From positions 56,303 through 120,302 of the forward strand of contig JBDRLL010000036.1 of the NCBI GenBank assembly GCA_043813075.1: a stretch of DNA of 64,000 nucleotides. Reading direction: 5' to 3'. The position numbers were made by a program, and so were the translations under genes. Shown here piece by piece: positions 15,871 to 35,728 of this stretch. Source of the DNA: Candidatus Altiarchaeota archaeon (GTDB lineage: Archaea > Altiarchaeota > Altiarchaeia > IMC4 > SCGC-AAA252-I15). Below the pieces are notes generated by a model. That model ran no database searches. It was not told the origin of the DNA and saw only the letters and a list, made by a program, of their open reading frames with translations. Numbering within the stretch: position 1 is the first letter of the stretch; each line of letters opens with the position of its first letter.

Positions 15871-15893
15871 CTCTTTTTTTCACCTCTTGTTTA

Positions 15894-16349
15894 TTAGATC
15901 GACCCTGCGTCCGGACCTCCCTGACGCAATCCCATCCCGGCGTTTTCCAGCAGCCAGTCAGGCTTCTTCAGCAGGTAGACCGCGTTCCTAGCGTGCTTCC
16001 TGCAGCGGTCCTCGACGATGGCCTTCAACTCCCTAGGCTTAGCTGCCTCGTCCTCGTGGACGAAGACCTCGATTATGTGCTTTTCAGCCATTAGCTGCGC
16101 CTGTATGAGTCCCTGCGACGCCTCGTGGGCGCACATCCTGTCCTTCTCTTTCCCGCCAGGCATCCCGCATGCGACGCATATGTCACATTCTTTCAGTAGC
16201 ATCTTGCATGCTGCAGGCAGGTCCTTTATGCCCGGAACAGTCCTACGTACCACTAGGGTATCGGGGAAGTTGTCGCGTATCTCGCCCGCCACGAGCTTCC
16301 CCATGTTCACCCTGGAGAAGGTGGTGTCCACGACACCTATCCTAGTCAT
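15894..16349 (-). CDS. ribC: Archaeal-type (lumazine-synthase-like) riboflavin synthase
   Basis: DTTFSRVNMG, TVPGIKDLP, IIEVFVHEDE, GLRQG. Confidence 0.92.
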   Translation of the reverse strand: MTRIGVVDTTFSRVNMGKLVAGEIRDNFPDTLVVRRTVPGIKDLPAACKMLLKECDICVACGMPGGKEKDRMCAHEASQGLIQAQLMAEKHIIEVFVHEDEAAKPRELKAIVEDRCRKHARNAVYLLKKPDWLLENAGMGLRQGGPDAGSI

Positions 16350-20374: not shown

Positions 20375-22073
20375 CTGGAACCTCCCTTAGGGAGATGTTA
20401 TACAATACAGCCCGGTACACGCCCCTCTCAATCCCCTTGTGATGCCAGTCCTCATTCTCCATTGAGAAGACGGGGGTGACGTCAAAACGGTCGTATAACT
20501 CGAGCCCATACATCCCGGTAAGCGGGAGAACAGCCTTGGTGCGCAAGTCATACAGCTCCCCCCGGGATATGTCGAAGCGCAGGTTAGAGTATACTTTCCC
20601 GGTCTGCGTGTTCTTCAGCATCATATCCTCCTTGCTGTAGGCGAGGAAGTCCTCGATGAGTATGTCATAACCCAGGCCCTGGGTCGTAGCGTAAACGGAA
20701 GTGCCGTGACGTAATACCCCCTCAAGGTAATCCAGGTGAGCCTTGATCTTATCCGGATAAATGAGGTCGTTGCCGCTCGGATGGCCTGTAGAATTCCGCC
20801 GGGCATAATACTCATAATGCTGGCTCTCATCCATCGCGATTATCAGGGAGTCCTCCCCAGTAACCTCCCTTATCCTTTTAGCGAACTCGCACGGCCCACA
20901 ATAGCTGCGCCTGTACTCCACTATGGGGTATATGTTGTACATCATCAGGGAGACCAGTATGAACAGGACTATTCCGGCGGCAGCATCCTTGTATCTCAGC
21001 CTAATCCTGTCCAGCGAGTAAGACATCATGACGACTGGCACAGCAAGCGCGGGTATCACAAACCTCGGGGAAGTGGATATCAGATTCCCGAGATACATGA
21101 AGAACGCCAGGAACCATAGGGACAAGGCGGCACACAAGTGCCTGTCCTCAACCCACAGGTAATACAAGCCGCCCAGGAACAAGACCCATCCTATCCAGGT
21201 CAAAGAGAACGTGGCCCAATCCAGGGACTTCGTCAGGTTCGGGGTGAACAATCCGAATCCACGGTTCGTCTCAGACCCTACGGAACGCATCTTCCCAGGC
21301 AGCGAGAACGAGGGGTCATCCATCATCTTGGGAACGAAGAAGAGGGTGAACACGATGAACGCGGGTACCGCTAGGACTAGGATCTCCCTCAATAGTTCGC
21401 CGTAAGTCTTTGACAGCATTATCTTAGTCTTCTTCCTGGATTTCTTCACCTCAACGGGCATGCTGCCGTGAGCGTAAAGCAGGATGAATGCGGGGAAAAG
21501 AAGTGCGCTCGTCTGGCGTATGGCCATCGTAAAGCCAAGGAGGCACGATGCCAAAGCCAAAAGCCTTAACGACTTCCTCTCGCCCGCCTCCAGGACAACA
21601 TAGGCTGACAGCAGCAGGAAGAACAATTCCATGCCATGCCCCTTACCGTAGGTTGAAAGCGAAAGGTGGACTGGCAGGAACGTCAGTATCAGGCCAGCGT
21701 ATATGCCAGCGTAATCAGAGTTGAACAGCCTTCTCGCAAGCAAGTATGCCGCCGGAATGCATAGGGCGCCGAAGAGGACTCCAGCGAACAATACCGCAGA
21801 CTCCGCGCTGGTCGCGCCCAACAACTTGAACACCGCGTAAGTGAGCGTCATCAGCACCGCCTCCCCAGGGTAACCCAGCTCCCCCTGCAGGTAGTGGAGC
21901 CTCCCTGTGGCGAGGGTGTCTTCAGCAGCCCTCGCGCCGATGACAGAGTCAGTGTGCCACAGGCCCGCTGACTTGAAGTAATACCTCACTCCAAAAGCGA
22001 TGAGGAACAATACCAGCGCTATCTTAAGCTCCCTGACGCCCAAACCCGGCTTCCTCAACTTCCGCATCCGCAC
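20361..22073 (-). CDS. GT-C fold (ArnT/PMT-like) membrane glycosyltransferase
   Basis: More than 10 TMs; R...WHTDS first loop; PRF; extracellular C-terminal domain. Confidence 0.72.
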   Translation of the reverse strand: MRMRKLRKPGLGVRELKIALVLFLIAFGVRYYFKSAGLWHTDSVIGARAAEDTLATGRLHYLQGELGYPGEAVLMTLTYAVFKLLGATSAESAVLFAGVLFGALCIPAAYLLARRLFNSDYAGIYAGLILTFLPVHLSLSTYGKGHGMELFFLLLSAYVVLEAGERKSLRLLALASCLLGFTMAIRQTSALLFPAFILLYAHGSMPVEVKKSRKKTKIMLSKTYGELLREILVLAVPAFIVFTLFFVPKMMDDPSFSLPGKMRSVGSETNRGFGLFTPNLTKSLDWATFSLTWIGWVLFLGGLYYLWVEDRHLCAALSLWFLAFFMYLGNLISTSPRFVIPALAVPVVMMSYSLDRIRLRYKDAAAGIVLFILVSLMMYNIYPIVEYRRSYCGPCEFAKRIREVTGEDSLIIAMDESQHYEYYARRNSTGHPSGNDLIYPDKIKAHLDYLEGVLRHGTSVYATTQGLGYDILIEDFLAYSKEDMMLKNTQTGKVYSNLRFDISRGELYDLRTKAVLPLTGMYGLELYDRFDVTPVFSMENEDWHHKGIERGVYRAVLYNISLREVPDEVS

Positions 22074-23524
22074 TCCTCCCCGCCAGAACCCAGAGACGAC
22101 ACGTGACCCCTCAATACGGCGAGACCACCCCTCAACAGCAGCTTCAAGTCCGGGACGCTCCTGACGGACATGACCTTATTGAATATGAACCCTGGCCTGA
22201 AATACACTTCACGCCAGGCCCTAGAGCACAATTCGACTATCTCCTTGGACGGTATGTTCGGGTTAACGAGGGAGGGGACGCTCATGTCATACTTCTCCCA
22301 CTCGCCCTCAGGGAAACGCAGCCACCCGTTCTTCCTAGCCTCCTCGAACAAGACTGTGCCGGGATAGACTATGGGTATGGAGAACTGGACGGTGTCTACG
22401 TCAAGCTCCTTAACGAACTCTATTGTCCTACGCAAATCCCCCCTAGTCTCCCAGGGGTATCCGAGCATCACGGTGCCGTGACGCATTATGCCAACATCCT
22501 TCGCAGCCTTGAAGCTGGCCCGGACCTGCTCGATAGTGTACCCCTTCCGTATCCTCTCGAGCGTGTCAGGGCTCGCGCTCTCGATGCCGAACTTTATGAG
22601 CCGGCAGCCGGCAGCCCTCATCTTCCCGAGAATCCCCGCGTCCACATTGTCCACCCTGCCGTTGCACGACCACACGACCTTTATGCCCCTGTCGACTATC
22701 CCGTCGCAGAACTCCTCCATCCACTCCCGGTTGCACGTGAAAGTGTCGTCGTCAAAGAATATCTCCCTCACGCCATGCTCCGCAACAAGCATCTGCATCT
22801 CATGGAGAACACTCTTAACGCTCCTGAACCGGACCTTGTTATGATAAAGCATCTGAGGCCACGAGCAGAAAGTGCACCTGTAGGGGCAGCCGCGGGAGGC
22901 CATCATGTAGGTGAATTCATCGTAAAGCCTCCACGACTCATGGTATTTGCGCCAGGGTATTATGGTCCGGTCTATGAAAGGCATGGAATCCAGGTCCTCG
23001 ACGAGCTCGTATGGGCCGGTGTTCTTCACAACACCATCCTCGCGATAGTATATTCCGGGGGGCATGCCAGACCCGGAATCAATGTGTCTGGCCAGCTTTA
23101 GCATGCTCACGTCGTAGTCGCCGCCGGTGATGACATAGTCGAGCAGTGAATTCTCCATCGACTCCTCAGGTAGGACGGACACGTGGTCGCCGCAGACCGC
23201 GATCTTGATGTCTGGGAGCGCGTCCTTAATCCTGCCGACAGTCACCCAACTCTGCTTTATGGTGGGGGTCTTGGCCTCGTACACAAGCAAGTCAGGATTG
23301 TTCTCAGACAGCCGTTGGATGAATTCATCATCGGTCATGGACTCGCTTATAGCGTCGATGAATCTGACGTCATAGCCCTCCTTGCTCCAGAGGGTCACGC
23401 CCATGGCGGGAGTCATCGGGTAGATGAGCTCGTTGTCGCCCCTCATCTTCGCGAACCTGTTCTGACTCAACGTGATGAATCCTTCACCGCTCTTGAAAGG
23501 CAGATACGCGAAAACAGTCTTCAT
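22055..23524 (-). CDS. Cobalamin-binding radical SAM protein (HpnJ-like)
   Basis: N-terminal B12-type Rossmann region (GDHVS.LP), SRGCPYRCTFC, FDDDTF, FGIESAS, MLGYPWET, YPGT. Confidence 0.88.
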   Translation of the reverse strand: MKTVFAYLPFKSGEGFITLSQNRFAKMRGDNELIYPMTPAMGVTLWSKEGYDVRFIDAISESMTDDEFIQRLSENNPDLLVYEAKTPTIKQSWVTVGRIKDALPDIKIAVCGDHVSVLPEESMENSLLDYVITGGDYDVSMLKLARHIDSGSGMPPGIYYREDGVVKNTGPYELVEDLDSMPFIDRTIIPWRKYHESWRLYDEFTYMMASRGCPYRCTFCSWPQMLYHNKVRFRSVKSVLHEMQMLVAEHGVREIFFDDDTFTCNREWMEEFCDGIVDRGIKVVWSCNGRVDNVDAGILGKMRAAGCRLIKFGIESASPDTLERIRKGYTIEQVRASFKAAKDVGIMRHGTVMLGYPWETRGDLRRTIEFVKELDVDTVQFSIPIVYPGTVLFEEARKNGWLRFPEGEWEKYDMSVPSLVNPNIPSKEIVELCSRAWREVYFRPGFIFNKVMSVRSVPDLKLLLRGGLAVLRGHVSSLGSGGEECGCGS

Positions 23525-24483
23525 AAACCGACCCTTGATATCTTTATGCCCGAGCCACCAGCAGTCCTACACCCCATGAACTTCCTGAAAAGGCCGTACA
23601 CGAATCCCAGACCATAAGACACGTGTATGATGGGGTAGAGAAGCCACATGGCTGGGAACACCATGAACTCCCTCCGGTCCAATGCGAACTTGAGGCTGGT
23701 CAGGCCCGTGAGGGTTAAGTATAGTAGTAGGGGGAGAATATAAAAAAACCATCCGGTGGAGAGGATAACTGGGATGATCGACAGGAGATAGGCTGCGAAC
23801 CCCGTGGGCATGAGGAAAAGCGGCCTGAAACACGATGGCTGCATGAGAATCTGCTCCATCCTACCACGCCCATACCCTATGTTCTTCCGTATTATCTTGG
23901 ATATGGTGCCGGCCCTGCTGTGGTGCACGAGAGCCTTAGGGTCGTATATCATACGGTATCCCCTGGACGCCATCCTGTTGAAGAACTCGTTCTCCTCGTT
24001 GGGATAGAGGTCGGCGTGCAAGCCGCCCTCCTTCAGGTAATAATCCCTCCTGCACGACAGGTTGCACAGCACCAGGTGGGTCTCATCAGCGTCCCTGACG
24101 CCGCCTATAGGACGGAACCTATACCTCATGCTGCCTGCGCCGATCGCGGACTCCATCGTGTAGCCGAAACACCTCGCGAGCAGTGGATCCGACTCGGGAG
24201 TCACCATAGGCCCCCCGACCACCGCAACCCTTTCGTCGTCGTAATAGTGGAGGGTGTGCTCGAGAAGGTCCGGCTCCACCACCACGTCGTCGTCGAGGAA
24301 GTAGACTATGTCGCCGGAAGCCTCCGCCGCCGCCTTGTTCCGCTGCTCTGAAGGAGACTTGCCTTCCGCAACAACAACCTCCATTAGCTCCCGCGGGAAA
24401 TCGAGCTTCCTCAGTGATGCGACACATACGTCCGGCCTTAAGCCAGGCCCTATCGGTATTATGAAACTAACCTTCCCCTGCAT
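23521..24483 (-). CDS. GT2 glycosyltransferase with C-terminal TMs
   Basis: VSFIIP, QRN, FLDDD, NEE.EF..R, YGRGR. Confidence 0.88.
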   Translation of the reverse strand: MQGKVSFIIPIGPGLRPDVCVASLRKLDFPRELMEVVVAEGKSPSEQRNKAAAEASGDIVYFLDDDVVVEPDLLEHTLHYYDDERVAVVGGPMVTPESDPLLARCFGYTMESAIGAGSMRYRFRPIGGVRDADETHLVLCNLSCRRDYYLKEGGLHADLYPNEENEFFNRMASRGYRMIYDPKALVHHSRAGTISKIIRKNIGYGRGRMEQILMQPSCFRPLFLMPTGFAAYLLSIIPVILSTGWFFYILPLLLYLTLTGLTSLKFALDRREFMVFPAMWLLYPIIHVSYGLGFVYGLFRKFMGCRTAGGSGIKISRVGL

Positions 24484-25486
24484 CTTTTGTGAATAAGTTT
24501 AATGAAACACCCTTCTTATATGCGATCAGATAACCCAACGCCACTTGAGGCAGTATGGACAGTATGAGCAGCATGAAAGACACTGCAATCATCGTCTCAG
24601 CCTGAACGCCCAGCAGGGAGAACAACAACACCAACCCCACGTCACGGGTGCCTATGCCCAGCACGGATATGGGAAGCACCTCTATCATCAACACTATGGG
24701 CATCACGAAAAGCAGGGAGAGCATGCTGAAGTGGACGCCAACCCCCTCCCCGAGTATGTAGGGCCTCAGGAAGAGTATCGTCCACGAGGCTGCTGTGAGG
24801 AGTATAAGCTGCATGAGGAAGACGGGTTCGTGTATCACACGGAGTGTGGCGTGGAATTCCCTCAAAAGCCGCTTGGAGTGGCCCTTGAACCTGTCAGGGA
24901 TTATGAAACGCTGGACAGGCCTCATGAAAAACTCGGTTGTGCGGGTTGAGAAGAGTATCAGCGTGAATGAAGCAAGCATCACCGCCATCAGGAGTATCAA
25001 GAGTATGTTGTAGGAGGAGCCGCTTATCAGGAGGATTACGAAAACGTATCCCGTCGAGGCTGCGATGCAGATGTAGAAGAAGTCCAGCAGCCGGTCCACT
25101 ATCTCAACGCTCAAAGCCTTGTCAAGCTTCAATCCCCGGTCCCTCAAGTCGAAGGCCTTGACTATGTCTCCGACACGCCCGGGTGTCACCGCGCCGAATG
25201 CTATGCCCATGATGAAGGTCTGGAAACTGTCTGTGACACTGTATTCCCTGAGGAACCTGCCGGCCAGGAGCTTCCACCGGAGGGAGCGCAGGAAGACTTC
25301 CATGCCGACGGTGACAAGGCACAGTAATATGTAGATGGGGTGCATTGAGGATATCATCCCGATAGTCGCTGGCACGTTTATCTGGGAGAGTACTAGCATG
25401 AAGAGTATCAACCCGAAAAACGAGAGGTGACGCGAGGATATTTCCATCATCCGAACCTCAGACAGACATTCTGAGACGTAAAACAT
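24467..25486 (-). CDS. Lysylphosphatidylglycerol-synthase-TM (flippase-like) membrane protein; start probably near 25450
   Basis: RSLRWK, TPGRVGD..K, DRLLD, LPIS..GIG.RD. Confidence 0.85.
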   Translation of the reverse strand: MFYVSECLSEVRMMEISSRHLSFFGLILFMLVLSQINVPATIGMISSMHPIYILLCLVTVGMEVFLRSLRWKLLAGRFLREYSVTDSFQTFIMGIAFGAVTPGRVGDIVKAFDLRDRGLKLDKALSVEIVDRLLDFFYICIAASTGYVFVILLISGSSYNILLILLMAVMLASFTLILFSTRTTEFFMRPVQRFIIPDRFKGHSKRLLREFHATLRVIHEPVFLMQLILLTAASWTILFLRPYILGEGVGVHFSMLSLLFVMPIVLMIEVLPISVLGIGTRDVGLVLLFSLLGVQAETMIAVSFMLLILSILPQVALGYLIAYKKGVSLNLFTKDAGEG

Positions 25487-26156
25487 CTATGGGATACTTT
25501 AGTATTATATTCCAGTTAAGCTTGGACGAGCCGGAAGCCCTCGGCTTGAATATTATCGGCACCTCCCGCATGCTGAAGCCCGCCTTCATACAACGGTAGA
25601 GTATCTCAGCGCCAACCGAGTATCCGGTCGAGACGAAGTTGTCCAAGTCCAATGCCTCCAAAACCTCACGCCGATAGCACTTGAAGCCGCCGCTGCTGTC
25701 GTGCACGCCAAGGCCCAGCACGACCTTGTTGAACATGTTGGACATCTTGGACAGCATGTTCTGGATGAAAATCTTGTGCTCTGTGTCGCCGCCGTCAACA
25801 TACCTGGAGCCTATGACCACGTCAGCATCCCCGATGTTCTCCAGCAGCAGCGGTATGTACTTGGGGTCATGGCTGAAGTCCGCGTCCATCTCCACCACGA
25901 CGTCGTAGCCGTTTTCAAGGGCGTGCTTGAAGCCTGCGACACCAGCGCTCGCCCGGCCGCGCACTCCAGTGCGGACCAGCAGGTGTATCCTATCGTCATC
26001 CTTCGCAAGTTCTGCGACAAGCTCGTCCGTGCCGTCCGGACTGTCGTCGTCCACCACAAGGACTTCCAGGCGCTCGTCCTGCGAGAGCACTGACTTTATG
26101 ATCCTGGTTATGTTGCCCCGCTCATTGTAGGTTGGAAGCATTACGATAGGCTTCAT
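25458..26156 (-). CDS. Polyprenol-phosphate hexose (mannose-type) synthase, GT2 Dpm1-like
   Basis: PTYNE, VDDDSPDGT, EMDADFSHDP, GSRY, D.SGGFKCYR. Confidence 0.92.
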   Translation of the reverse strand: MKPIVMLPTYNERGNITRIIKSVLSQDERLEVLVVDDDSPDGTDELVAELAKDDDRIHLLVRTGVRGRASAGVAGFKHALENGYDVVVEMDADFSHDPKYIPLLLENIGDADVVIGSRYVDGGDTEHKIFIQNMLSKMSNMFNKVVLGLGVHDSSGGFKCYRREVLEALDLDNFVSTGYSVGAEILYRCMKAGFSMREVPIIFKPRASGSSKLNWNIILKYPIDVLRLRMSV

Positions 26157-26182
26157 TACAGCTAATCATTGAGACAGGGGGA

Positions 26183-27802
26183 TTAAATACGCTCGGGATT
26201 CTCGAACACAACGTAATGAACATGATTGCTGGTTGGAAAGCCGAGATAGTCCATGAAGGATGTCCTCAACCCGGGAGGCCTCTGTTGCGAGGATTCGATC
26301 TCATAGACCATGCTCCAGTTCGAGACCGTATCCAGGAGGGGCGAGAATTCGGTTCCATTAAGGTCGTTCAGCACCCACACTGGGAATACCGCGTAATCAA
26401 TGTTCTCGACACTCAGGTTCCGGGTGAAGTCGCTGGGGGAAGTTCCGACGAGATAACGGTCGTAGGGTATGAGATTCAAGCCGTAGTACGAGAATATCTG
26501 GCGGAAGCTGACTTCATCAGCCTTTGTGTCGGGGGTGATCATCGTGAAGGCGACAAAATCCCCCTCCACAACCCTCTGGTCGATGAAGTCATTCATCATC
26601 ATCACCTCCTGGACGGGAGTCATCGACGCCTGGCAGAATACAAAAGCCTCCACCCCACACCAGAAGGTGAAGATGAATGGTATGGCGGTTAAGACGACAA
26701 CCCTCCTGGGGTGGACTGCAGCAAGATGATTGATTACGCGCTTAAGGAAGAATACGGGGGTTATCGAGAGTATGTAGACTACGGGGATGAGCATGTGGTC
26801 CGCCCGGTTGACCATCAAGAGGAACAAGAGATAGGAGTGGAGGTACACGAAAACTATGCGCCTCAGATTATCGTTCGAGATGACGAACAAACCCATCAGG
26901 GACATTATAAAAAACGATGAGAAGACTCCGGAGAGGATCATCTTATGGTCGACAGGCATGAGGGAGTATAATATCAGGGGGATGAATAGCACGAACTCCG
27001 CCCTGACGCCGGAATTGCCGGCATAAAGCGAATCAACGTATTCGAGAAGCCTGCCTGAAAAACGCGACAACACGAGTAATAGGATGGGGGAGCCTAGGAC
27101 AACGAGGAGGTATAAGCGCGAGAACTTCTGGAAATCCCTCAGAAAACCGTTGGAGTCAAACAACAGCATTAATGAGACGAATATAATCAATGGCGCCAGA
27201 GAGAGAAAAAGCGACTTGAACAGATGCTTCCTCGAATTCCAGAATAAGACTAGGGCAATCGAGAAGACAAACACCAGCCCGGAATATTCAACAAGTGTTG
27301 CAGCACCCACGAGTATGCTGGACAATGCCAGGTCCCTCTCCCGCCCGGACTCCAGGAAGTTTTGCAGGAAGTATATCGACGCCAGGACCAGGACGCTAAG
27401 GCAGTTGTTGGCGAAACCCATGCGACCCCAGAACACCAACTCCGGAGTCAACGCATATAATAGGCCCGCCAAAAACCCGTATCCTGCACCCAGGATGCGC
27501 GAGACGATAGCGTAGACTATGATCATGCCTATTAGGGACATGACTACTGAGAATATCCTTATTGCGAGCATTCCTGGACCCAGAAGTTTTATTGGGAGTA
27601 TCAGGGATAGGAAGTATGCGGGAGGATGGGGTATGAAATGGTATTTGTAGGCGAACAATCGTGGGGTCCCAGCCATCAGGTTAACAGCGTAATTCACGTT
27701 AGCGTTCTCGTCCGGATCCCATTTAGGCACTGAAGACAGGTTGACGAGCCTCAATGACAATGCGAGCAGTATCACCAGCAGTATTCGATAGTCTATTCTC
27801 AA
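26183..27802 (-). CDS. GT-C fold (GT39/ArnT-like) membrane glycosyltransferase
   Basis: LRL...DPDE, HPPAYF, IR..S motifs; many TMs. Confidence 0.8.
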   Translation of the reverse strand: MRIDYRILLVILLALSLRLVNLSSVPKWDPDENANVNYAVNLMAGTPRLFAYKYHFIPHPPAYFLSLILPIKLLGPGMLAIRIFSVVMSLIGMIIVYAIVSRILGAGYGFLAGLLYALTPELVFWGRMGFANNCLSVLVLASIYFLQNFLESGRERDLALSSILVGAATLVEYSGLVFVFSIALVLFWNSRKHLFKSLFLSLAPLIIFVSLMLLFDSNGFLRDFQKFSRLYLLVVLGSPILLLVLSRFSGRLLEYVDSLYAGNSGVRAEFVLFIPLILYSLMPVDHKMILSGVFSSFFIMSLMGLFVISNDNLRRIVFVYLHSYLLFLLMVNRADHMLIPVVYILSITPVFFLKRVINHLAAVHPRRVVVLTAIPFIFTFWCGVEAFVFCQASMTPVQEVMMMNDFIDQRVVEGDFVAFTMITPDTKADEVSFRQIFSYYGLNLIPYDRYLVGTSPSDFTRNLSVENIDYAVFPVWVLNDLNGTEFSPLLDTVSNWSMVYEIESSQQRPPGLRTSFMDYLGFPTSNHVHYVVFENPERI

Positions 27803-27812
27803 TGCAGGTCAC

Positions 27813-28346
27813 CTACAATGCATTCAAAGCCTCCGTGAACTCCGTGCTCCAGTCCTTCTCAAAAACCTTTCTGCCCCCGGACTCCAGCCAGGATGAGACA
27901 ACATCATAGTCTACGCCCGTGGTGGCATCCAGCTCGAGGACGTTGTTGTGGAGGGATAATGCGTCATACAATATGACTCCAGCATACTCCGCCTCCAGGT
28001 TCTCCAGTATCTTACCACGCCCATACCCCCGTTCAGACATGCGGGCGGAAAGCAGCCTCGGGTCAGCTCGCAGGACAAGCACGTGGGATACGGGCATGAA
28101 ATGGCTCAGAAGACCGTCCACCACCAGAGGCTCCTTCCCGGAACCATACTCCTTCTCGAACAGGACGCCAAGCTCGTCAACGTCAACATCGAATGTCTCA
28201 TGGTCCTTATCATAGTCCACACCAATACTCGACTTGGCGTAATCGTTCAAATCAAGGTACACTGCCTTTAAGAGAGAGGAAAGTTTCCTGGAATTTGTCG
28301 TCTTACCGGTGCAGGGGGTGCCCGAAACAGATAAACTGTAAACCAT
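27813..28346 (-). CDS. Adenylate kinase 6 / Fap7-like nucleotide kinase
   Basis: SGTPCTGKTT P-loop, VVDG.LSH, L..R...RGY...K..EN.EAE. Confidence 0.88.
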   Translation of the reverse strand: MVYSLSVSGTPCTGKTTNSRKLSSLLKAVYLDLNDYAKSSIGVDYDKDHETFDVDVDELGVLFEKEYGSGKEPLVVDGLLSHFMPVSHVLVLRADPRLLSARMSERGYGRGKILENLEAEYAGVILYDALSLHNNVLELDATTGVDYDVVSSWLESGGRKVFEKDWSTEFTEALNAL

Positions 28347-28349
28347 GCC

Positions 28350-28438
28350 GAAACCCAGTATTTTGCCTATTTATATTGCTTTTACGAATAGGTTATATAG
28401 CTAAATAAAGCATATAAAAATCGTAGGAGGTATGAAAT
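28350..28438. promoter_or_regulatory. AT-rich divergent promoter region with strong Shine-Dalgarno site for the pilin array
   Basis: TTTATA, TTATATA and ATATAAAAA boxes; GGAGGT at 28426-31, 7 nt before ATG 28439. Confidence 0.6.
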
Positions 28439-28765
28439 ATGAATAAGAACAAGGTTCTAATAAGCCTGCTGGCATGCCTTATTGTTTTTTCAATGGCAAC
28501 CACGGCAAGCGCAATATCAAACGCCATAAAACTGAGGGTTTGCTCGGTAGTAACGTCAATTTACCAGGCATTATGGGCCATTGCGCCGTCTTTCGTCGCA
28601 TTGATGTTCATATACGGCGGCGTTAAGTACGTGTACGGCGGCGATGACCCGGGAGCGCGTAAGAGCGGTAGAAACATCTGCGTGCACGCGATAATCGGCG
28701 GAATCCTTATTGCAATAGCAAGCGCTGTGATAAGCATAATAGGATTAGGATCAGGCTGCAGTTAA
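28439..28765 (+). CDS. VirB2/TrbC-like pilin 1
   Basis: Signal peptide ending ASA; two hydrophobic helices joined by YGGVKYVYGGDDPGARK; AIIG. Confidence 0.8.
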   Translation: MNKNKVLISLLACLIVFSMATTASAISNAIKLRVCSVVTSIYQALWAIAPSFVALMFIYGGVKYVYGGDDPGARKSGRNICVHAIIGGILIAIASAVISIIGLGSGCS

Positions 28766-28789
28766 ACACCTGCAACGGAAGGGTAGAAT

Positions 28790-29101
28790 ATGGAGGTTAA
28801 ACCCATCATAGCAGTTTTGGCAATAATAGGACTATCAGGGTTAGCTTCAGCAGTGGCGATCCACATAGCACCATGCAAGATTATTGTCATGGTCAGAGAC
28901 GCGATAATGTCGCTCACAGGGATAATGGTCCTGCTGATGTTCACCTACGGCGGCATTAAATACGTCTACAGCGCAGACGACGCGGGAGGCAGGAAGGCCG
29001 CTAAGAAGATATGCGAGCACGCGATAATCGGGGGGATACTAGCAGGCCTGATGAACGAGGTTTTAACCGTACTAGGCAACACACCATACTGCCCCACCTA
29101 A
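28790..29101 (+). CDS. VirB2/TrbC-like pilin 2
   Basis: Signal peptide ending ASA; YGGIKYVYSADDAGGRK; AIIG. Confidence 0.8.
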   Translation: MEVKPIIAVLAIIGLSGLASAVAIHIAPCKIIVMVRDAIMSLTGIMVLLMFTYGGIKYVYSADDAGGRKAAKKICEHAIIGGILAGLMNEVLTVLGNTPYCPT

Positions 29102-29102
29102 A

Positions 29103-29402
29103 ATGAGTTATAAGTCCAGAATATCGGCTGCGGGAGTTTTGTTGATAGCTTTAGCCACCAACGTGTCCGCCGGATTATTCGATAAGGTGATAACTTTTGT
29201 AAACTCACTCCAATACTCCGTGCTGGTCATGGGCAACTCGATATGCGAGGTGATGTTCGTGTACGGAGGCCTGAAGTACATATTCAGCGCAGACGACCCC
29301 AGCGGGAGGAAGACTGGCCTCAACATATGCATCGCAGCCACCATAGGGGCGCTGCTGATAGTGATTTCAAAGGAAGTCGTAAGCGTGATAGTCGTGACAT
29401 GA
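29103..29402 (+). CDS. VirB2/TrbC-like pilin 3
   Basis: Signal peptide ending VSA; YGGLKYIFSADDPSGRK; ATIG. Confidence 0.8.
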   Translation: MSYKSRISAAGVLLIALATNVSAGLFDKVITFVNSLQYSVLVMGNSICEVMFVYGGLKYIFSADDPSGRKTGLNICIAATIGALLIVISKEVVSVIVVT

Positions 29403-29408
29403 GGGAAG

Positions 29409-29729
29409 ATGAATACGGATAACGTGAAGAAGGGGATTATCGTATTGCTGTTGTGCACGCAGATTGTCTCAGCCGCTACAACAGATCCTGCAGCCATAAT
29501 AAAAGGCCTGATATGCAGCATATGGACGGACTTCACAAAGCTCATAGGGCCTCTCGCAACCCTCATGTTCGTGTACGGCGGCGCTAAATACGCTTACAGT
29601 GCAGACGACCCGGGAGGGAGGAAACAGGCGAAGGCCATCTGCATAAACGCGATAATAGGTTTGCTTATAGCCGCATCGGCGAGGGCCATAGTAGCCGCGG
29701 CCGGGGCATCAGGAAGCATCTGCCCTTAG
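29409..29729 (+). CDS. VirB2/TrbC-like pilin 4
   Basis: Signal peptide ending VSA; YGGAKYAYSADDPGGRK; AIIG. Confidence 0.8.
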   Translation: MNTDNVKKGIIVLLLCTQIVSAATTDPAAIIKGLICSIWTDFTKLIGPLATLMFVYGGAKYAYSADDPGGRKQAKAICINAIIGLLIAASARAIVAAAGASGSICP

Positions 29730-29735
29730 AGCAGT

Positions 29736-32630
29736 TCAAGCGTCAGCGAGAGGCAGGAATACGGGGGATTCGCCAGCATCAGTTGATTCTAACACCGCAG
29801 GCTCGTCATTAAAGCCGTCGTAGCTTATCTCATAAACCCTCACATATCCCGCGGAAAACTCCTTGATAGGGCGGAAATGCCTTAAAGGCTTTATGTCCCG
29901 CGTGTACAATCCGTGAGCCTTGTACTCCCTCACATAGTGGGTCAGGTAGAGGTTCGTGAGCATGAAGTCGTTGAACTCGTCCGGAACATACACTAGTGTG
30001 TTGAATGTCGGATAGAACCTGCAGTAATACCTAGTCCTCTCGTCCACGTTGGGCGAGGCATATGAGGAGGCGCACATGAGTATGTCCCCCAGAGGCTGCA
30101 CGCCGAGTATGGAAGCCTTGCTTGATTCCGCCCAATTGCTCCATGGTATGACGTCGCCGTAGGGCGTTATGACTTCCACTGAATCCAGTTCCCCATCCCG
30201 TATGTTGAATATGAGGGCTGCGATATAATTGCTGCAGCCGAAGAGAAGCCTCTGCTGCTGGTAGACGCCGCCCTTCCCGTCACCGACTATCTGCGGACGG
30301 AGTATGCTGTTCTCAGGCAGGAACCTGCACTGCCCATAGTTCCGCCAAGCCCACATCGGGTCGGCGGCAGTGTTGGACTCGATGTCCCCGTTGGCTATGA
30401 AGTGAAGCGCACTGCCCTTGCCGATCATCGTCCAGTCTATGGCAACGTACTTAAGTTCACGTCCAGTCTCACGGTACGCGTCATTATACTCTTCAACCAT
30501 CTTGAACGCCTCCTGCTCGCCGCTCTTGTTCACGAAGAACCTCGCCACATCCTGGATCTCGAAGTAGTCGGCCTGAAGGTTGTCTATCAAGACAGGCCTC
30601 TGAGACACTGCGGTAATCCAGTGGCCGTAGTCCCACCACGTCAGTATGGCCTCGCTCTCGGAGGTCTCGTTGTACGCCCAGTCAAGCATCGGCTGCCAGT
30701 AGTATATGTCGAGGGTGAAGCCCATGTGCATGACTATGTGGCCCACAAAACTGTTGTAGTTCCAATCCCCGAAGAATGGCACGTAAAGCACGGGCACGAC
30801 AAGCAGCATTAGGGTGCCTATTATCCTCCAGTCGTCCAGCTCCTTCTTGTTCACTGCCGCATACAGGCCGATGCTCGCGCCCAGCACGGTGACCGACGGG
30901 CTTGCCGCGAATATCCATGCGGACTTGTTCCATGACCCCCACATCATGGGTATGCTCCACGTCAATAGGAACAACGCGCCGATGCTCCGCCTGCCCAAAG
31001 CCAGGTATGCTAGTGGCACAAGCATGAAAAGGCCGTATAATAAGGCTATCCCGTACTTCCCGTAGCCGCTGTTAAGGAAGTCCACGAAACCGCCGGCCAT
31101 CGGATTCTGCTCTGAAACCGTCTGGTGGACGACACTCTTCAGCTTGGCGCCCATGATGGTAGTGTATATGTTGCCCACAACCTCGATAGGCCCTCCCTCA
31201 TGGTACGCCAACAGTACGCCGCCGATTATCACGATGACTGACAGGACCAGTATCCTGTCCTGTATCAGCGAATCCACCCTATCCTCGATACTCTTGGAGG
31301 GCATCTCCTTCTTGCCGTGCATGCGGACACGAACAGCCTCAAGGATTATGGGCAGCCCTATCGCACCGGCTATGGGTATCAAAGCTATGGGAGGCATCTT
31401 CAACATCCCCAGCATCTCCAAGACAGGGAACGTGAGCTGCTCGTGAGTGAAGAGTATCGACAGCTGGCTTATGGCCACCGCTATGAACAAGTAGGGCACA
31501 ACCTTGGTGCAGTTCTCCCTGTGCATGAAGAGTATCAGCGCATAGATTATCCCAAACGCTCCGACAGTGAGGTATGCGTAAGTGTAGGCCCACGTTAGCT
31601 TGAGCATCATGAAGGACAGTCCGGCGAGCACCGCGTACTTGAAGCTCCTCCGGTGGACGGACGCGAAGAACAGGTAGAAGCTGGACAGCATGAGGAACAT
31701 GCCGAACACGTCGTCCTCGCAGTTGGCGGCAGTCCCGTTTATCGCGAAGCCTGGACTCAGCATGAATATGAAGGCTGCAGTCAAAGCGGCAAGCCTGTTG
31801 TGGGGACGCATATCGGAGAACATCTCCTTCACCAGCAGATACATGGGTATGACAGCGAGGCCGCCCAACACGCCAGGCAATAGCATGGCGATGTCGTAGA
31901 GCGAGAAGCCGAAGGGCTTCATGACGAGGGCCATGACGCCGTACAACGTCGGGTTGAGCATTGGCGTTGAATGCTGTGGCAGACCGTGGGTGACCCCGCC
32001 CTTCGAGGCGATGTACGCCGGGTCGTCACGCTTCTGGAGGCCGCCTATCATCGGATACACTAGGTCGTCGTATTCGGTTATGTGGCCGGAGTAGACGCCG
32101 CGCATCCACTTGTACTGCCAGTAGGAGTCCAGGTTGCCGAGAAGCTCTGATGTTGCAGGCACCACGTGCAGCACTGTGGCGGAGAGGAACAACGCGAGCA
32201 CCGCCGCAAGCTCCCAGTCCATGATACGGCGTATAGTCAGGGTTGTGAAGAACAGTATTATCGCGGTGATGAACGAGAAGAACAGGTAGTCCTTGTTGGC
32301 TGGATAATCATACCATCCGACATACCATGAGAACAGCGCTGATATGAAAACGAGCAGGGGGATGACGTAGGCCCAAGACGGCCTGCTTGAATCCCTTATC
32401 GTGAAGAATAATGACGCGACGAAAAGTGCGGAAAGCATCCAGGGCGCAGTCTCGAAGAATGTTCCCGTTATCCTGACGGCCGTCAAGACCAGCACCAGCA
32501 GGGACACCAGGAACACCGGCTCACGGAACTTTGACGTTATCCTCTCATAGGAGTCTACGGACAGCGTTATGGACTTTTCTTTGGTTGAACTGCTTTTTCT
32601 AGCAGACTTCTTCTTAGAAACCATCTTCAC
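29736..32630 (-). CDS. aglB: Oligosaccharyltransferase AglB (STT3 family)
   Basis: WWDYG, TVSE (TIXE-like), DWTMIGK (DK-type) motifs; many TMs. Confidence 0.93.
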   Translation of the reverse strand: MKMVSKKKSARKSSSTKEKSITLSVDSYERITSKFREPVFLVSLLVLVLTAVRITGTFFETAPWMLSALFVASLFFTIRDSSRPSWAYVIPLLVFISALFSWYVGWYDYPANKDYLFFSFITAIILFFTTLTIRRIMDWELAAVLALFLSATVLHVVPATSELLGNLDSYWQYKWMRGVYSGHITEYDDLVYPMIGGLQKRDDPAYIASKGGVTHGLPQHSTPMLNPTLYGVMALVMKPFGFSLYDIAMLLPGVLGGLAVIPMYLLVKEMFSDMRPHNRLAALTAAFIFMLSPGFAINGTAANCEDDVFGMFLMLSSFYLFFASVHRRSFKYAVLAGLSFMMLKLTWAYTYAYLTVGAFGIIYALILFMHRENCTKVVPYLFIAVAISQLSILFTHEQLTFPVLEMLGMLKMPPIALIPIAGAIGLPIILEAVRVRMHGKKEMPSKSIEDRVDSLIQDRILVLSVIVIIGGVLLAYHEGGPIEVVGNIYTTIMGAKLKSVVHQTVSEQNPMAGGFVDFLNSGYGKYGIALLYGLFMLVPLAYLALGRRSIGALFLLTWSIPMMWGSWNKSAWIFAASPSVTVLGASIGLYAAVNKKELDDWRIIGTLMLLVVPVLYVPFFGDWNYNSFVGHIVMHMGFTLDIYYWQPMLDWAYNETSESEAILTWWDYGHWITAVSQRPVLIDNLQADYFEIQDVARFFVNKSGEQEAFKMVEEYNDAYRETGRELKYVAIDWTMIGKGSALHFIANGDIESNTAADPMWAWRNYGQCRFLPENSILRPQIVGDGKGGVYQQQRLLFGCSNYIAALIFNIRDGELDSVEVITPYGDVIPWSNWAESSKASILGVQPLGDILMCASSYASPNVDERTRYYCRFYPTFNTLVYVPDEFNDFMLTNLYLTHYVREYKAHGLYTRDIKPLRHFRPIKEFSAGYVRVYEISYDGFNDEPAVLESTDAGESPVFLPLADA

Positions 32631-33316
32631 TTGCCGTACCTACGCTCCTTAGTCCTGAAGTCAGAAACTATATCGTTTAAATCCTCCTCCGTGAACTCCT
32701 GCCATAGTTTCTCGACGAAGTATATCTCGCTGTAGGCAGACTGCCATAGGAGGAAGTTGCTTATGCGGTCCTCAGCAGTCCTTATGAGAATGTCGGGATA
32801 ATCCTTCACCCAGAGGTTATCCTTTATGCTGTCCTCAGTCAGCTCCATGCCAGACTCAACCACTTTTTTCGCGGCCTCCAGTATCTCCTGCCTTCCGCCG
32901 TATGCTATGGCAAGGTTGAGCTTAAGACGGTCATAGCCTTTAGTGGATTCCTCCAGCCGCTGAAGGTTTTCGAACACCTCCTTGGCGAGTTCAGGCCTCA
33001 CGCCATTGTTGAGGAGCTGCTGCTTGTCGCCGCATATGTTTATCCTCACCTTGTTGTCGTGTATCCTGGGCTCCTTCATGCCGTCGAGCGCGTGGCTGTT
33101 GAAGACGCTGAACAGGGTCTCTATCTCGTCCTCACCCCGGTTGCTGATGTTCTCCAGCGAGAGGGCGTAGAGGGTCAGCTCGTCGACCTCGAGCTTGGAG
33201 CACCATTCAACAAAATCGTAGAACTTGCGTATACCCTGGTCGTAAGAGTCAAGAAGGTTAATGTTCTTCTTGGCCATATACCTCCTGTTACCATCAGGTA
33301 TGAGCGCTATATGCAT
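32627..33316 (-). CDS. uppS: cis-prenyltransferase (polyprenyl diphosphate synthase)
   Basis: HIALIPDGNRR, S.EN, YGGR.E, RISNFLLWQ.AYSE, C-terminal RRYG. Confidence 0.94.
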   Translation of the reverse strand: MHIALIPDGNRRYMAKKNINLLDSYDQGIRKFYDFVEWCSKLEVDELTLYALSLENISNRGEDEIETLFSVFNSHALDGMKEPRIHDNKVRINICGDKQQLLNNGVRPELAKEVFENLQRLEESTKGYDRLKLNLAIAYGGRQEILEAAKKVVESGMELTEDSIKDNLWVKDYPDILIRTAEDRISNFLLWQSAYSEIYFVEKLWQEFTEEDLNDIVSDFRTKERRYGK

Positions 33317-33379
33317 CGTAGATGATATCCTTGTATTAACGTGTAATTAATTGATTTGGTCTTTAAATTATTAACTAAC

Positions 33380-33853
33380 ATGAATCCGGGCATAATGTTG
33401 GATGCGTCAGCCATCATACGGTCGAACCTGGACTTCTCCGAGGGAGGGTACTACATAACCCATGGGGTGATGTCTGAGATAAACGACCCAAGGGCTAGAG
33501 ACGCAATTGACTATGGAATTAGAAGTTCTAACATAAAAATGCTTGAAACCGGCGGAAAACACCTTGAAAAGGCCCGTAAAGCAGCTAGAAAAACAGGCGA
33601 CGACAGGGTTTTGAGCGAAACGGACTTGGAAGTCATCGCCGCCGCGCTGGAGCACGGGCTAAACGTGGCTTCAGACGACTACGCCATACAGAACACGTGC
33701 AGGACCCTGGGGATAGGATACGTTACCACACTACACGACGGGATAAGAGAGCATGTGAGGTGGCGATACGTGTGCGGGGGGTGCGGGAAGAGCATGGAGG
33801 GCCCCGGCGTTTGCAGCGTATGCGGCTCGGAAGCCAGGAGGAGGAGGGCCTAG
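33380..33853 (+). CDS. nob1: Nob1-family rRNA maturation endonuclease (PIN plus Zn ribbon)
   Basis: LDASA, LSETD, SDDYAIQN, CGGC...CSVCG. Confidence 0.9.
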   Translation: MNPGIMLDASAIIRSNLDFSEGGYYITHGVMSEINDPRARDAIDYGIRSSNIKMLETGGKHLEKARKAARKTGDDRVLSETDLEVIAAALEHGLNVASDDYAIQNTCRTLGIGYVTTLHDGIREHVRWRYVCGGCGKSMEGPGVCSVCGSEARRRRA

Positions 33854-33883
33854 TTTTTTAGCGTTCCCGATTATTCTTTACTT

Positions 33884-35728
33884 GTGAAAAAGCCATCCGT
33901 CTCCGACGAGAGGATAGTGACATCAATCTTCATTTTCACCGCGCTAGTGTTCTACGCGACTTCTGCGGGGATGAACGACAGCAACTCTGGAAGCCATTAC
34001 GCGCTCACCAAGGCCATCGCGGAGGACCAGTCCTACATAATAGACGAGTACGTCGGATACACTGGGACGATAGACGCGGCGAAGGTGGGTGAGACATGGT
34101 ACTCTGACCGCCCGCCAGGCAACGCGTTCATTGCATCATTATTCTACCTGTCCGGGAAGGTGTCGTCAGCGATAGTCAGTATGCCGCGCTTCGACATGAG
34201 CTGGGACGCCGGCAACCCGGGCGCGTTCACCGTGATACTCCTGCCGGTGATCTCCGCGTCAGCGTCAGTCGCACTGCTCTACCTCATTGTCCGACGGCTC
34301 GGCGGCAGCGTCCATGCGGGAGCCATAACCGCGCTGACGCTCGCATTCTGCACGATAACATGGGAGTACGCCCAACTGCTCCACTCGCACGCGCTATCCC
34401 AAGCCCTCATGATGGCGGCAGCATATCTCGCGCTGACCATACGGGACTCGAGGAAGGATGAGGGAAAGTTCATGGCACTATGCCTTATCACAGGATACGC
34501 GGCGATCGTGGAATACCCCAACATACTCTTGACCATCCCGCTCGCATGGTACCTCAAGACGACAGGCAAGATAAAGACAGGGAAGAAGAGGCTGTCAGAC
34601 CCCATCCTCCAGAAGGCTGCGGTAATATTCGCCGCGCCACTGATAATACTCGCAGCATACAATACGGCAAACTTCGGAAGCCCGGTGAAGACAGGCTACT
34701 CATACAACTACCACTTCGGCTGGGCGAGGAGCATGACAGACACCTTCAGCAACCCCATGTGGGAGGGCCTGATGGGACTGCTGGTGGACTCTGACAGGAT
34801 ACAGGGAGGCCTGCTGAAGACCGCGCCCATAGTCCTGCTGGCGCTCGCATGCTGGCCCCAATTCCACTCCAAGAAACGCGGGGAGGCTGTCCTGCTGGGC
34901 TCCATGTTCCTGATTCACCTGCTCTTCTACGCCAAGCACCAGACGTACTGGGGCGGGGGGGCTGAGAACACGAGATACCTGCTGACCGTCACCCCATTCA
35001 TACTCCTGCCGGCATACATCTGGCTCGACAAGTATTCGCTAGGCTTCATGGAGAACAAGACAAGGATTATCGGGGCGTTAGCCTACGCAATCCTAGCGTA
35101 CTATTCAGCATCCTACGTGGTGTGGGACATAATGCACTACCCAGGCCACGAGCCATTCGAGACGGTGCCATTGATGTCTCCAGGAGACGTCGCGTACAAC
35201 ATCAGGGTGGTGTTCAGGAACATGTGGAACCTCCCGTTCATGCTCGGACTGATGGGCCTCTCTTACTCTGCCGTATCCCTCAGGATTAACAGGCCCCTTG
35301 GATTCCGGAGGATGGAGCGCGGACACAGGGACAAACTGGTTGCCTTGGCAGTGGCGTCGCTGCTGCTTCTAGCCTTCAGGCCGGACCTTTCCGGAGGGAA
35401 ATCGTTCATACGCTGGGAGGCTAGGATGGGGGGAGGAGAATGGAGCAGGGTGGATATGCCAGTGGAAGTCCAGGGTCCGGGAGTCATGGAAGTCAGGGCT
35501 TCAGTGCAAATCCCGAAGGGCGGGAGCCTGTCGGGCACAATCACCGCCGTGGAGTGCGTTGAGAACGTGAACGTGAACAACATCGTGAAGCTGGCTGCGG
35601 AATGCGGCGGCTGCGAACACTGCAACGGATTCAATTACGACCTGACGAAGGTGGTGACGCCAGGGCTGAACAGCATCCTCTTCAGGGTGAAGAGCAACAG
35701 GAGTGTCGTATCATTCAGGCTCGAGTGA
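33884..35728 (+). CDS. GT-C-like polytopic membrane protein with C-terminal beta-sandwich domain
   Basis: S.YALT.AI.E, YSDRPPG, YN..NFGSP..TGY, WGG....RYL; many TMs. Confidence 0.65.
   Translation: MKKPSVSDERIVTSIFIFTALVFYATSAGMNDSNSGSHYALTKAIAEDQSYIIDEYVGYTGTIDAAKVGETWYSDRPPGNAFIASLFYLSGKVSSAIVSMPRFDMSWDAGNPGAFTVILLPVISASASVALLYLIVRRLGGSVHAGAITALTLAFCTITWEYAQLLHSHALSQALMMAAAYLALTIRDSRKDEGKFMALCLITGYAAIVEYPNILLTIPLAWYLKTTGKIKTGKKRLSDPILQKAAVIFAAPLIILAAYNTANFGSPVKTGYSYNYHFGWARSMTDTFSNPMWEGLMGLLVDSDRIQGGLLKTAPIVLLALACWPQFHSKKRGEAVLLGSMFLIHLLFYAKHQTYWGGGAENTRYLLTVTPFILLPAYIWLDKYSLGFMENKTRIIGALAYAILAYYSASYVVWDIMHYPGHEPFETVPLMSPGDVAYNIRVVFRNMWNLPFMLGLMGLSYSAVSLRINRPLGFRRMERGHRDKLVALAVASLLLLAFRPDLSGGKSFIRWEARMGGGEWSRVDMPVEVQGPGVMEVRASVQIPKGGSLSGTITAVECVENVNVNNIVKLAAECGGCEHCNGFNYDLTKVVTPGLNSILFRVKSNRSVVSFRLE

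Follow-up and report, generated by a model that had tools for sequence, protein, structure and literature searches.

The window analyzed here is a stretch of 64,000 nucleotides from a Candidatus Altiarchaeota archaeon (assembly GCA_043813075.1, contig JBDRLL010000036.1, positions 56,303 to 120,302 of the forward strand), in which a first-pass annotation made from the sequence alone had proposed an array of VirB2/TrbC-like pilin genes. The array consists of four paralogous open reading frames (ORFs), all on the + strand at 28439-29729 of the window: pilin 1 (28439..28765, +, 108 aa), pilin 2 (28790..29101, +, 103 aa), pilin 3 (29103..29402, +, 99 aa), and pilin 4 (29409..29729, +, 106 aa). The intergenic gaps are 24, 1, and 6 nt, with pilin 3 starting 1 nt past the stop of pilin 2, and 6 nt separate the stop of pilin 4 from that of a convergent aglB gene. 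A Shine-Dalgarno-like AGGAGGT (28425..28431, +) was recognized by inspection 7 nt upstream of the ATG of pilin 1, in agreement with the annotated arrangement of four tandem paralogs of about 100 aa behind one such sequence. Such tight spacing behind a single ribosome-binding site suggests joint expression. Inspection also pointed to a candidate TATA-like AT-rich box TTTATATT (28370..28377, +), about 60 nt 5' of the first start codon, and to a second putative TATA-like box ATATAAAA (28412-28419, +). A scan for sigma-70-type promoters and terminators did no better than on shuffled sequences, the sigma-70 model being uninformative for an archaeon. Among public read runs for window positions 27800-30200, no RNA run was listed, and the best of four runs of DNA or unknown type had 0.29 of the sampled words.

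Each protein begins with a hydrophobic N-terminal signal of 22-25 residues, ending in TASA, LASA, NVSA, or IVSA. These signals were read by eye rather than with a signal-peptide predictor; their small-x-small ends, followed by a mature protein in the form of a two-helix hairpin, agree with the annotated signal peptidase I (SPase I) type. Signal length, small-x-small ends, and the hairpin form led us to reject an identity as type IV pilins with class III signals, and no type IV pilin family appeared in a Pfam scan of the four proteins. The paralogs are 36-43% identical to pilin 1 and share 17 invariant columns (alignment A1), which match the motif MF.YGG.KY...DD...RK...IC..A.IG. The motif stands above chance given the Pfam E-values, the presence of arrays in all ten related archaeal loci, and nonsynonymous differences below synonymous ones (see below).

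We then analyzed the family membership of these proteins. The array proteins belong to the VirB2/TrbC-type pilin superfamily, as had been proposed before any profile search. Three of the four pass the gathering score of PF18895 (T4SS_pilin, 26.6 bits), the scores of pilins 1-4 being 34.3, 32.1, 25.5, and 38.7 bits and their Pfam E-values spanning 1.4e-5 to 1.1e-9; pilin 3 falls short by 1.1 bits and was grouped with the others via the paralog alignment. Pilin 4 also passes PF04956 (TrbC/VirB2; 28.5 bits against a gathering score of 27.9, E = 1.8e-6), for which no match of pilins 1-3 was listed at E <= 10. The best NCBIfam match of pilin 4 is Mbov_0395, a pilin-like family of Mollicutes integrative and conjugative elements (ICEs), of which it is not a member because its 25.8 bits lie under the family cut-off of 40. 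When a profile of 35 homologs was compared with solved chains, the top match was TrwL, the VirB2 homolog of R388, at a weak E of 0.21. Neighbors of pilin 4 in the ESM Atlas carry PF18895 or PF04956 (feature scores 0.90-0.91, TM 0.58-0.62, to be taken as a lead only); their clusters come from Minisyncoccota, Saccharimonadota, and Actinomycetota, together with one Iainarchaeota cluster named TrbC/VirB2.

Modeled by AlphaFold2 from 35 sequences (mean pLDDT 88.7), pilin 4 comprises a signal helix at residues 3-23 and a two-helix hairpin (27-63 and 68-98) with an S-A-D-D turn at 64-67, helix 2 being opened by P-G-G-R-K. Model and hydrophobic segments together give the VirB2/TrbC architecture, in which an N-terminal signal precedes two hydrophobic helices with a short charged loop between them; the annotated hairpin with a shared loop motif is also recovered. 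Most pilins contain one cysteine (Cys) near the start of helix 1 and another in a short tail past helix 2 (C36 and C105 in pilin 4). The model places residue 98, where helix 2 ends, at the same height as residues 34-36 of helix 1, so that C105 could be brought to C36 by the seven-residue tail. The Cys pair could thus clamp the open end of the hairpin by a disulfide.

Among 53 array pilins, 45 have both cysteines, five have neither, three have only the C-terminal one, and none has only the N-proximal one. A loop-anchored pattern scored 45 of the 53 (39 both, three neither, three C-terminal only, none N-proximal only), and the eight pilins that it missed were read by eye (six both, two neither). 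In the window, the pair is present in pilins 1, 2, and 4 and both cysteines are missing from pilin 3. All eight exceptions are either members of the same penultimate class as pilin 3, described below, or one N-terminally truncated ORF.

To place the array in its evolutionary context, a pilin profile was used to find the nearest loci in a species-level genome collection, which yielded 12 loci, ten archaeal and two from distant bacteria within the candidate phyla radiation (CPR). All ten archaeal loci contain tandem arrays, of 5, 4, 5, 9, 4, 3, 6, 5, 4, and 4 copies. An AglB ortholog (42-66% identical) is directly downstream and convergent in nine of them, and the contig of the tenth ends first; an AK6 ortholog lies upstream of the array in seven. 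In the window itself, a family scan showed the array to be flanked by STT3/AglB and an AAA_18/AK6-like gene, with a block of glycosylation and core genes around them. The position among the core genes AK6 and aglB is therefore as annotated, and the synteny proposed as a check is found in the relatives.

A maximum-likelihood tree of 56 pilins (111 alignment columns; ultrafast bootstrap (UFBoot) and SH-aLRT supports) revealed that array position is conserved. The last genes, including pilin 4, form a single clade (11/11 rows, support 100/100), the slowest evolving class. The penultimate genes, including pilin 3, also group together, with supports of 96/97 for a nine-row core and 51/96.7 for all 11 rows. 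Pilins 1 and 2 belong to an upstream class of variable copy number, with longer branches than the last-position class and lineage-specific duplications (e.g., p2/p3 and p6/p7 in L024, p1/p2 in L030). Deeper branches are unresolved because only 111 columns are available. Between orthologs of the same genus, the proportion of nonsynonymous differences (pN) is 0.28-0.45 and that of synonymous differences (pS) 0.73-0.91 in the four pilins, similar to AK6 (0.30 and 0.97). Purifying selection is indicated, as pN is under pS in all four; pN and pS are given rather than dN/dS because saturation affects the synonymous sites of every gene but one.

Neither VirB4 nor VirB6, relaxase, or mobile-element families were found among the 52 other ORFs of the window that were scanned (16 + 36), as the annotation had stated. 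We therefore have to look to the rest of the genome (1.80 Mb, 41 contigs, 89% complete), where that annotation had placed the assembly machinery. Genome-wide, PF18895 has 14 matches at E <= 0.01, and a compact locus resembling a type IV secretion system (T4SS), without a detectable relaxase, is present at 20.9-36.3 kb of contig C10 (20882-36268; L017:1882-17268). Its genes encode, in this order, a 92-aa protein; a 115-aa pilin (PF18895 45.6 bits, TrbC 26.0); a 2125-aa polytopic VirB6-like protein (L017:2775-9149, +); a 156-aa zinc-ribbon-like protein; a 770-aa polytopic VirB6-like protein (L017:9625-11934, +) with a weak TrbL match (22.6 bits vs. 25.9); a 402-aa protein; a 294-aa PrgI/VirB3-like protein with a weak PrgI match (17.5 bits vs. 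27); a 759-aa VirB4-like ATPase (P-loop_TraG, 7.1e-26, with AAA_10 and DUF87); and two further pilins of 100 and 119 aa. The term stand-alone, used in the first-pass annotation, thus applies to the array locus but not to the genome, since C10 holds both the predicted machinery and three more pilins.

The C10 gene order is repeated in a relative (L042). The O-phosphoseryl-tRNA synthetase gene (SepRS) follows, and upstream of the locus are a 471-aa ORF and three ORFs of about 550-570 aa that resemble, by inspection, the radical-SAM and PMT_2 genes of the window. Among solved structures, the ATPase is matched by the VirB4 domain 4ag5 (1.6e-32) and by TrwK (5.2e-6); for PF03135 (the CagE/TrbE/VirB N-terminal domain) there was one match only, at E 0.26. 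Orthologs of the ATPase in public records come mostly from Altiarchaeota and are labeled "VirB4 family type IV secretion system protein," "conjugal transfer ATP-binding protein TraC," "DUF87 domain-containing," or "ATP-binding protein," and the pilin genes in the public records examined are labeled "hypothetical protein." Identity to VirB4s of plasmids is 31% or less even for the closest ones, which come from Actinomycetota, Bacillota, and Mollicutes and include the CD1110 and Mbov_0397 families (e.g., 24%, E = 5e-24, for a Spiroplasma plasmid ATPase of the Mbov_0397 family), and pilin 4 had no match among plasmid sequences at E <= 0.01. The GC content is 0.501 in the array, 0.555 and thus somewhat higher in the C10 locus, and 0.515 in the genome. 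The ordinary GC content of the array, its core-gene neighbors, the only 31% identity of plasmid VirB4s, and the lack of a plasmid pilin match argue for a chromosomal setting.

Relaxases of the two families searched, PF03432 and PF08751, had no match in the genome, and such an absence at 89% completeness is no proof. For the coupling protein family PF02534, only short P-loop matches were obtained, in ORFs of about 510 aa.

A polytopic N-terminal module of some 300 residues recurs in five large proteins encoded by this genome (770, 1727, 1736, 2125, and 2188 aa; blastp 1e-16 to 1e-27). Two of them are the VirB6-like proteins of C10, and the remaining three are encoded at L018:2558-7765 (-), L019:4093-9273 (+), and L019:9283-15846 (+). 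At its start, the module has a hairpin that shares homology with the pilins (hhalign probability 95.9%, E = 5.1e-9, 63 columns). No family was recognized for the long C-terminal extensions of the five proteins; at the end of the 1727-aa protein there is a borderline helix-hairpin-helix motif (HHH_5, 27.1 vs. 27.0 bits), a faint indication that it may bind DNA.

No Pfam family matches the last ~165 residues of the VirB4-like ATPase (~595-759; L017:15844-16350, +), which also lie outside the plasmid VirB4 matches and whose ESM Atlas feature matches reach only 0.78-0.83, to unnamed clusters. A nuclease-like reading of this segment was dropped, as neither Pfam nor the Atlas supported it. The segment also occurs as separate ORFs of about 180-240 aa in three relatives (G048:C85, G050:C4, and G042:C7).

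The distribution of pilins and ATPase was then surveyed in 61 genomes of the phylum, this one included, with E <= 1e-5 for the pilin profile and E <= 1e-10 for the ATPase. Pilin matches were detected in 46 genomes and ATPase matches in 45; 43 have both, three have the pilin only (G044, G021, and G022), two have the ATPase only (G006 and G028), and 13, which belong to families f7, f8, and f9, have neither. VirB4-type machinery follows the pilins across the phylum. Full-length orthologs of the VirB4-like ATPase are 59-87% identical across the order, indicating vertical inheritance under strong constraint, and the chromosomal, vertically inherited setting fits the description of the pilus genes as domesticated.

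In genus g20, represented by G021 and G022, the pilin matches are weak and no VirB4-like ATPase was matched. It is possible that this genus has pilins without this motor, or that its ATPase is diverged or missing. A second, divergent VirB4-like paralog (33-45% identity) is present in G037-G041, G032, and G043; most copies have about 1100 aa, and those of G032 and G043 about 790-850 aa. Database homologs of the ~1100-aa form, of similar length and 42-45% identity, carry PF26593. The ATPase search found no second copy in the genome studied here.

In family f6, one ORF takes the place of the separate pilin genes. The fused pilin at L039:5406-8021 (-), a protein of 871 aa (P0030), contains a signal peptide, six hairpins recognized as PF18895 stretches (168.7 bits), and an internally repetitive, Cys-rich tail of roughly 300 aa described as extracellular; a second genome encodes a fused pilin of 728 aa with five units (L043:1047-3233, -). 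AlphaFold2 modeled the first 600 residues of the former as six helix-turn-helix units, whose packing is unreliable (pLDDT 65, pTM 0.47). A profile search of 1.84 billion representatives returned 19,105 proteins at E <= 0.001, 775 at <= 1e-10, and 32 at <= 1e-30. Among the best 150, 145 were newly listed (P0151-P0295), of which, by our own profile, 64 have one hairpin and 81 at least two; 81/145 is no frequency, as ranking by total score favors multi-unit proteins. These 81 comprise four proteins with two hairpins, 22 with three, 26 with four, eight each with five, six, and seven, three with ten, one with 11, and one with 16. P0151 (1775 aa) consists of a signal peptide and 14 (Pfam) or 16 or 17 (own-profile searches) hairpins, with little else. 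In three fused clusters, the named members are entered as "hypothetical protein" for Candidatus Altiarchaeales. Of 53 loop-anchored units in six fused proteins, 49 are flanked by cysteines both before and after, a count inflated because the window scored behind a unit can run into the start of the next. Units can be strung behind a single N-terminal signal because both hairpin ends face outward, and the existence of proteins with 2-16 hairpins suggests that paralogous hairpins work side by side.

From the family membership, the hairpin fold, the conserved arrays, the presence and co-distribution of the machinery, and the lack of a detectable relaxase, we infer that a single operon comprises the four genes, whose products are helical-hairpin proteins of VirB2/TrbC type exported by Sec, and that this operon is a satellite of a chromosomal, vertically inherited, relaxase-less T4SS-like apparatus conserved across one order of Altiarchaeota. 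We give this reading as a whole a probability of roughly 0.6. If it is right, a true extracellular filament would have perhaps even odds, and DNA would be the cargo with a chance of about one in three.

Under such a scheme, the precursors would enter the membrane via Sec and be cleaved by SPase I. The mature hairpin of about 80 residues would have its DDPGGRK loop in the cytoplasm and both ends outside, where a disulfide between the Cys at the start of helix 1 and that in the C-terminal tail would close the open end, in a manner similar to the head-to-tail cyclization of TrbC, T-pilin, and TrhA. The VirB4-like ATPase and the VirB3- and VirB6-like proteins, the latter with a homologous hairpin of their own in the platform, may extract the pilins from the membrane and stack them into a tube or short conduit whose interior would be lined by the basic loops. 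The last and penultimate paralogs would have specialized roles (e.g., base, tip, or adaptor), and the upstream paralogs of variable copy number might provide the bulk or a variable surface. The conduit would serve cell-to-cell exchange, either DNA import as in Ced and Ted or uptake from partner cells as proposed for Patescibacteria; we have no preference between the two.

Several observations weigh against this reading. The array is unlinked from the VirB4 locus, on a separate contig, and the PrgI and TrbL matches both lie beneath the Pfam cut-offs. The three pilin-positive genomes in which no VirB4 was found are 82% (G044), 92% (G021), and 73% (G022) complete, and the co-distribution, which sets one clade against the rest, amounts to about one evolutionary event and not to 61 observations. 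Foldseek found no match of the pilin 4 model in the PDB at E <= 0.001, and a wider structural search returned many long helical hairpins at Z of about 8. The Aeropyrum pernix conjugation pilin CedA1 (8dfu_B) was among them at rank 10 (Z 8.0, root-mean-square deviation 3.4 A, 74/84 residues, 15% identity), tied with hairpins of ESCRT-III and histidine kinases at Z 8.0-8.6; because of this tie, the fold is compatible with a CedA1-like pilin yet non-discriminating. The annotated kinship with CedA1/TedC thus retains a structural match, one that is shared with unrelated hairpins. In addition, covalently linking as many as 16-17 hairpins in a chain, or incorporating a hairpin into VirB6-like proteins, is at least as compatible with an assembly resident in the membrane as with a free filament. 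Finally, according to PMC12857230, pilus formation has been demonstrated for no PF18895 protein and is called an "intriguing possibility" even for the essential Southlakia array.

The last two points lead to the alternative that the hairpins stay in the membrane and, alone or with VirB6-like proteins, form a ring, a channel lining, or a lipid-organizing platform with no filament at all. The 2-16 fused hairpins in single proteins (81 of the 145 newly listed top representatives), among which P0151 with its 14 PF18895 stretches and, in family f6, P0030 with six and a Cys-rich extracellular tail stand out, would be at home in such a structure, as would the five VirB6-like proteins that begin with a homologous hairpin, and no pilus has been shown for any PF18895 protein according to PMC12857230. 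On the other hand, since the hairpin ends would point outward, a linker of 15-20 residues could join neighbors in a filament lattice too; the solved relatives VirB2, TrbC, and CedA1 are filament subunits; and separate signal-bearing copies are commoner in family f1, to which this genome belongs. We regard a purely membrane-resident assembly as unlikely, though clearly the strongest of the alternatives. Another explanation is that the paralogs are alternative major subunits, i.e., a variation cassette that changes the pilus surface for different partners or for escape from viruses. A copy number of 3 to 9 between relatives, the lineage-specific duplications in the upstream class, and its longer branches than those of the last-position class would be expected of such a cassette, which has been proposed for Patescibacteria (PMC12102498) and also for the tandem VirB2 genes of Anaplasma and Bartonella. 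However, the last (11/11, 100/100) and penultimate (core 96/97) genes are old, fixed classes that keep their order, which suggests distinct roles rather than interchangeable variants, and both the tight spacing behind one ribosome-binding site, with the joint expression that it suggests, and the fused proteins, which express all units at once, are difficult to reconcile with alternation. A variation cassette is therefore the more doubtful of these two explanations.

It could also be argued that the array encodes envelope proteins unrelated to secretion which act with the glycosylation genes nearby (AglB, cis-prenyltransferase, and PMT_2), considering that an AglB ortholog is directly downstream in nine of ten related loci, that the array neighborhood is rich in glycosylation genes, and that the C10 locus is preceded by PMT_2- and radical-SAM-like ORFs (by inspection). 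Yet the proteins are assigned to a T4SS pilin family of Pfam, aglB is convergent and thus not co-transcribed, the pilins of family f6 and of genome G007 do not adjoin AglB, and an N-x-S/T sequon occurs in only 8 of 56 pilins and in none of the mature proteins of the window. This explanation appears very improbable. For the same shortage of sequons (8/56), N-glycosylation of the pilins was rejected as the reason for the AglB linkage.

Going beyond the satellite-operon reading, one may imagine a heteropolymeric VirB2-type tube that is clamped by disulfides rather than cyclized, has fixed, specialized positions, and in some lineages is laid down as one chain of up to 16-17 hairpins; such a tube may at the same time be a conduit between cells that CPR bacteria and DPANN-type archaea have in common, and not a borrowed plasmid device. 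Taken jointly, these propositions are speculative and probably wrong in at least some part. If they were true, a tube of pre-linked subunits would be a form of conjugative-pilus architecture.

We also compared the altiarchaeal genes with known systems. Tandem VirB2-like arrays with a relaxase-less T4SS are already known from Patescibacteria, as described in PMC12102498 and PMC12857230. According to the former, these bacteria have conserved VirB4, PrgI/VirB3, VirB6, and VirB2-like pilins recognized by the same two Pfam models, with 441 arrays of 2-11 pilin genes in 383 assemblies, usually without a relaxase; according to the latter, the six-pilin array of Ca. Southlakia epibionticum ML1 is essential, and the pilus is still only a possibility. 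Similar features of the altiarchaeal loci are the tandem, divergent PF18895/PF04956 arrays (2-11 genes in CPR, 3-9 here) and a chromosomal VirB4 with VirB3/PrgI-like and VirB6-like partners but no relaxase, widely conserved in a small-genome lineage. CPR genes are also the only non-archaeal matches of the pilin profile (2/12 loci) and the top feature neighbors in the ESM Atlas. Unlike in the patescibacterial systems as described there, the host here is archaeal, the array lies apart from VirB4 at a fixed site by AglB, its paralogs have fixed positions, and a Cys pair is conserved. A keyword search through the text of PMC12102498 turned up neither fused multi-hairpin proteins nor VirB6-like proteins that begin with a hairpin. 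Judged from its genes, the altiarchaeal system appears to be the CPR parts list in an archaeal lineage, with the addition of an unlinked array of fixed positions, a putative disulfide clamp, and fused multi-hairpin proteins.

Ced and Ted, which import DNA (Beltran et al. 2023, PMC9905601), are likewise encoded on archaeal chromosomes and combine a VirB2-like pilin with a VirB6-like membrane protein and a VirB4-like ATPase but no relaxase, and TedC has an SPase I signal like the one read by eye here. In contrast, the text of that paper describes one pilin for each of them (CedA1 or TedC, with CedA2 in some), without multi-gene arrays or a reported Cys clamp; likeness to CedA1 in particular comes from the structural match 8dfu_B only, with its tie to unrelated hairpins. 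Neither "DPANN" nor "Altiarchae" occurs in that text. The cyclic pilins TrbC (RP4), VirB2 T-pilin, and TrhA (R27) are also short hairpins with their ends together on the pilus surface (PMC13434634, PMC12037004, PMC13031515, and PMC9905601). There, the ends are joined by a peptide bond made by a dedicated peptidase, whereas the Cys pair (45/53) suggests a disulfide here, which by analogy would be a simpler route to the same end; unlike the cyclic pilins, the penultimate-gene subclass tends to lack the closing pair.

Rickettsiales genomes contain several oversized VirB6 paralogs, comparable to the five large VirB6-like proteins of this genome. Anaplasma and Bartonella have several virB2 copies in tandem, apart from the other vir genes (as cited in PMC12102498), but they are diderm, have a full VirB7-10 outer-membrane complex and protein effectors, and their paralogs are read as antigenic variants, without, in that account, the kind of positional orthology seen in this array. 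Resemblance to the ICE system of Mollicutes is limited to Mbov_0395 as the nearest NCBIfam family of pilin 4 (below its cut-off) and the match of the ATPase to the Mbov_0397 family; unlike this array, those systems sit on mobile elements. Giant proteins of Nanohaloarchaea with a VirB4/TraG-like domain have been read as T4SS-related in a study whose text does not contain the terms "VirB2," "VirB6," or "pilin" (PMC10266531).

A search of the open-access literature with few phrasings, covering main texts, found no altiarchaeal T4SS, VirB2-like pilin, or chain of fused pilins described; the supplements of PMC12102498 and PMC9905601 could list archaeal homologs. The annotation had called the filament system undescribed, which holds for Altiarchaeota in this literature but not for the kind of system, already described in Patescibacteria (PMC12102498 and PMC12857230).

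To our knowledge, conjugative-type pili of archaea have so far been known only from Ced and Ted of thermophilic Thermoproteota, and we know of tandem VirB2-like arrays with a chromosomal relaxase-less secretion system only in Patescibacteria, where they are essential for host-bound life. The presence of the same kit in most of the sampled Altiarchaeota (43/61 with pilin and VirB4) would extend it to a second archaeal lineage. Array and machinery point, as far as genes alone can tell, to a cell-to-cell conduit not yet described in Altiarchaeota, and offer a handle on a possible exchange of DNA or material between these uncultured archaea of the subsurface and other cells. The fixed-position paralogs, the putative disulfide clamp, and the fused hairpins could also inform the assembly of VirB2-type filaments in general.

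Other features of the window were noted as well. The region at 18548-35728 is dense in envelope and glycosylation genes, encoding AglB, a cis-prenyltransferase, three PMT_2 glycosyltransferases, and two GT2s, and further holds LPG_synthase_TM, a B12 radical SAM protein, and a phosphodiesterase/sulfatase-like protein. The pilin-AglB adjacency within it is kept in nine of ten related loci despite the convergent orientation and the sequon-poor pilins. A sensor histidine kinase of 1308 aa with many PAS domains is encoded at 57613-61542 (-), in an otherwise small genome, and a riboflavin cluster contains two adjacent DMRL synthase paralogs at 15421-16349.

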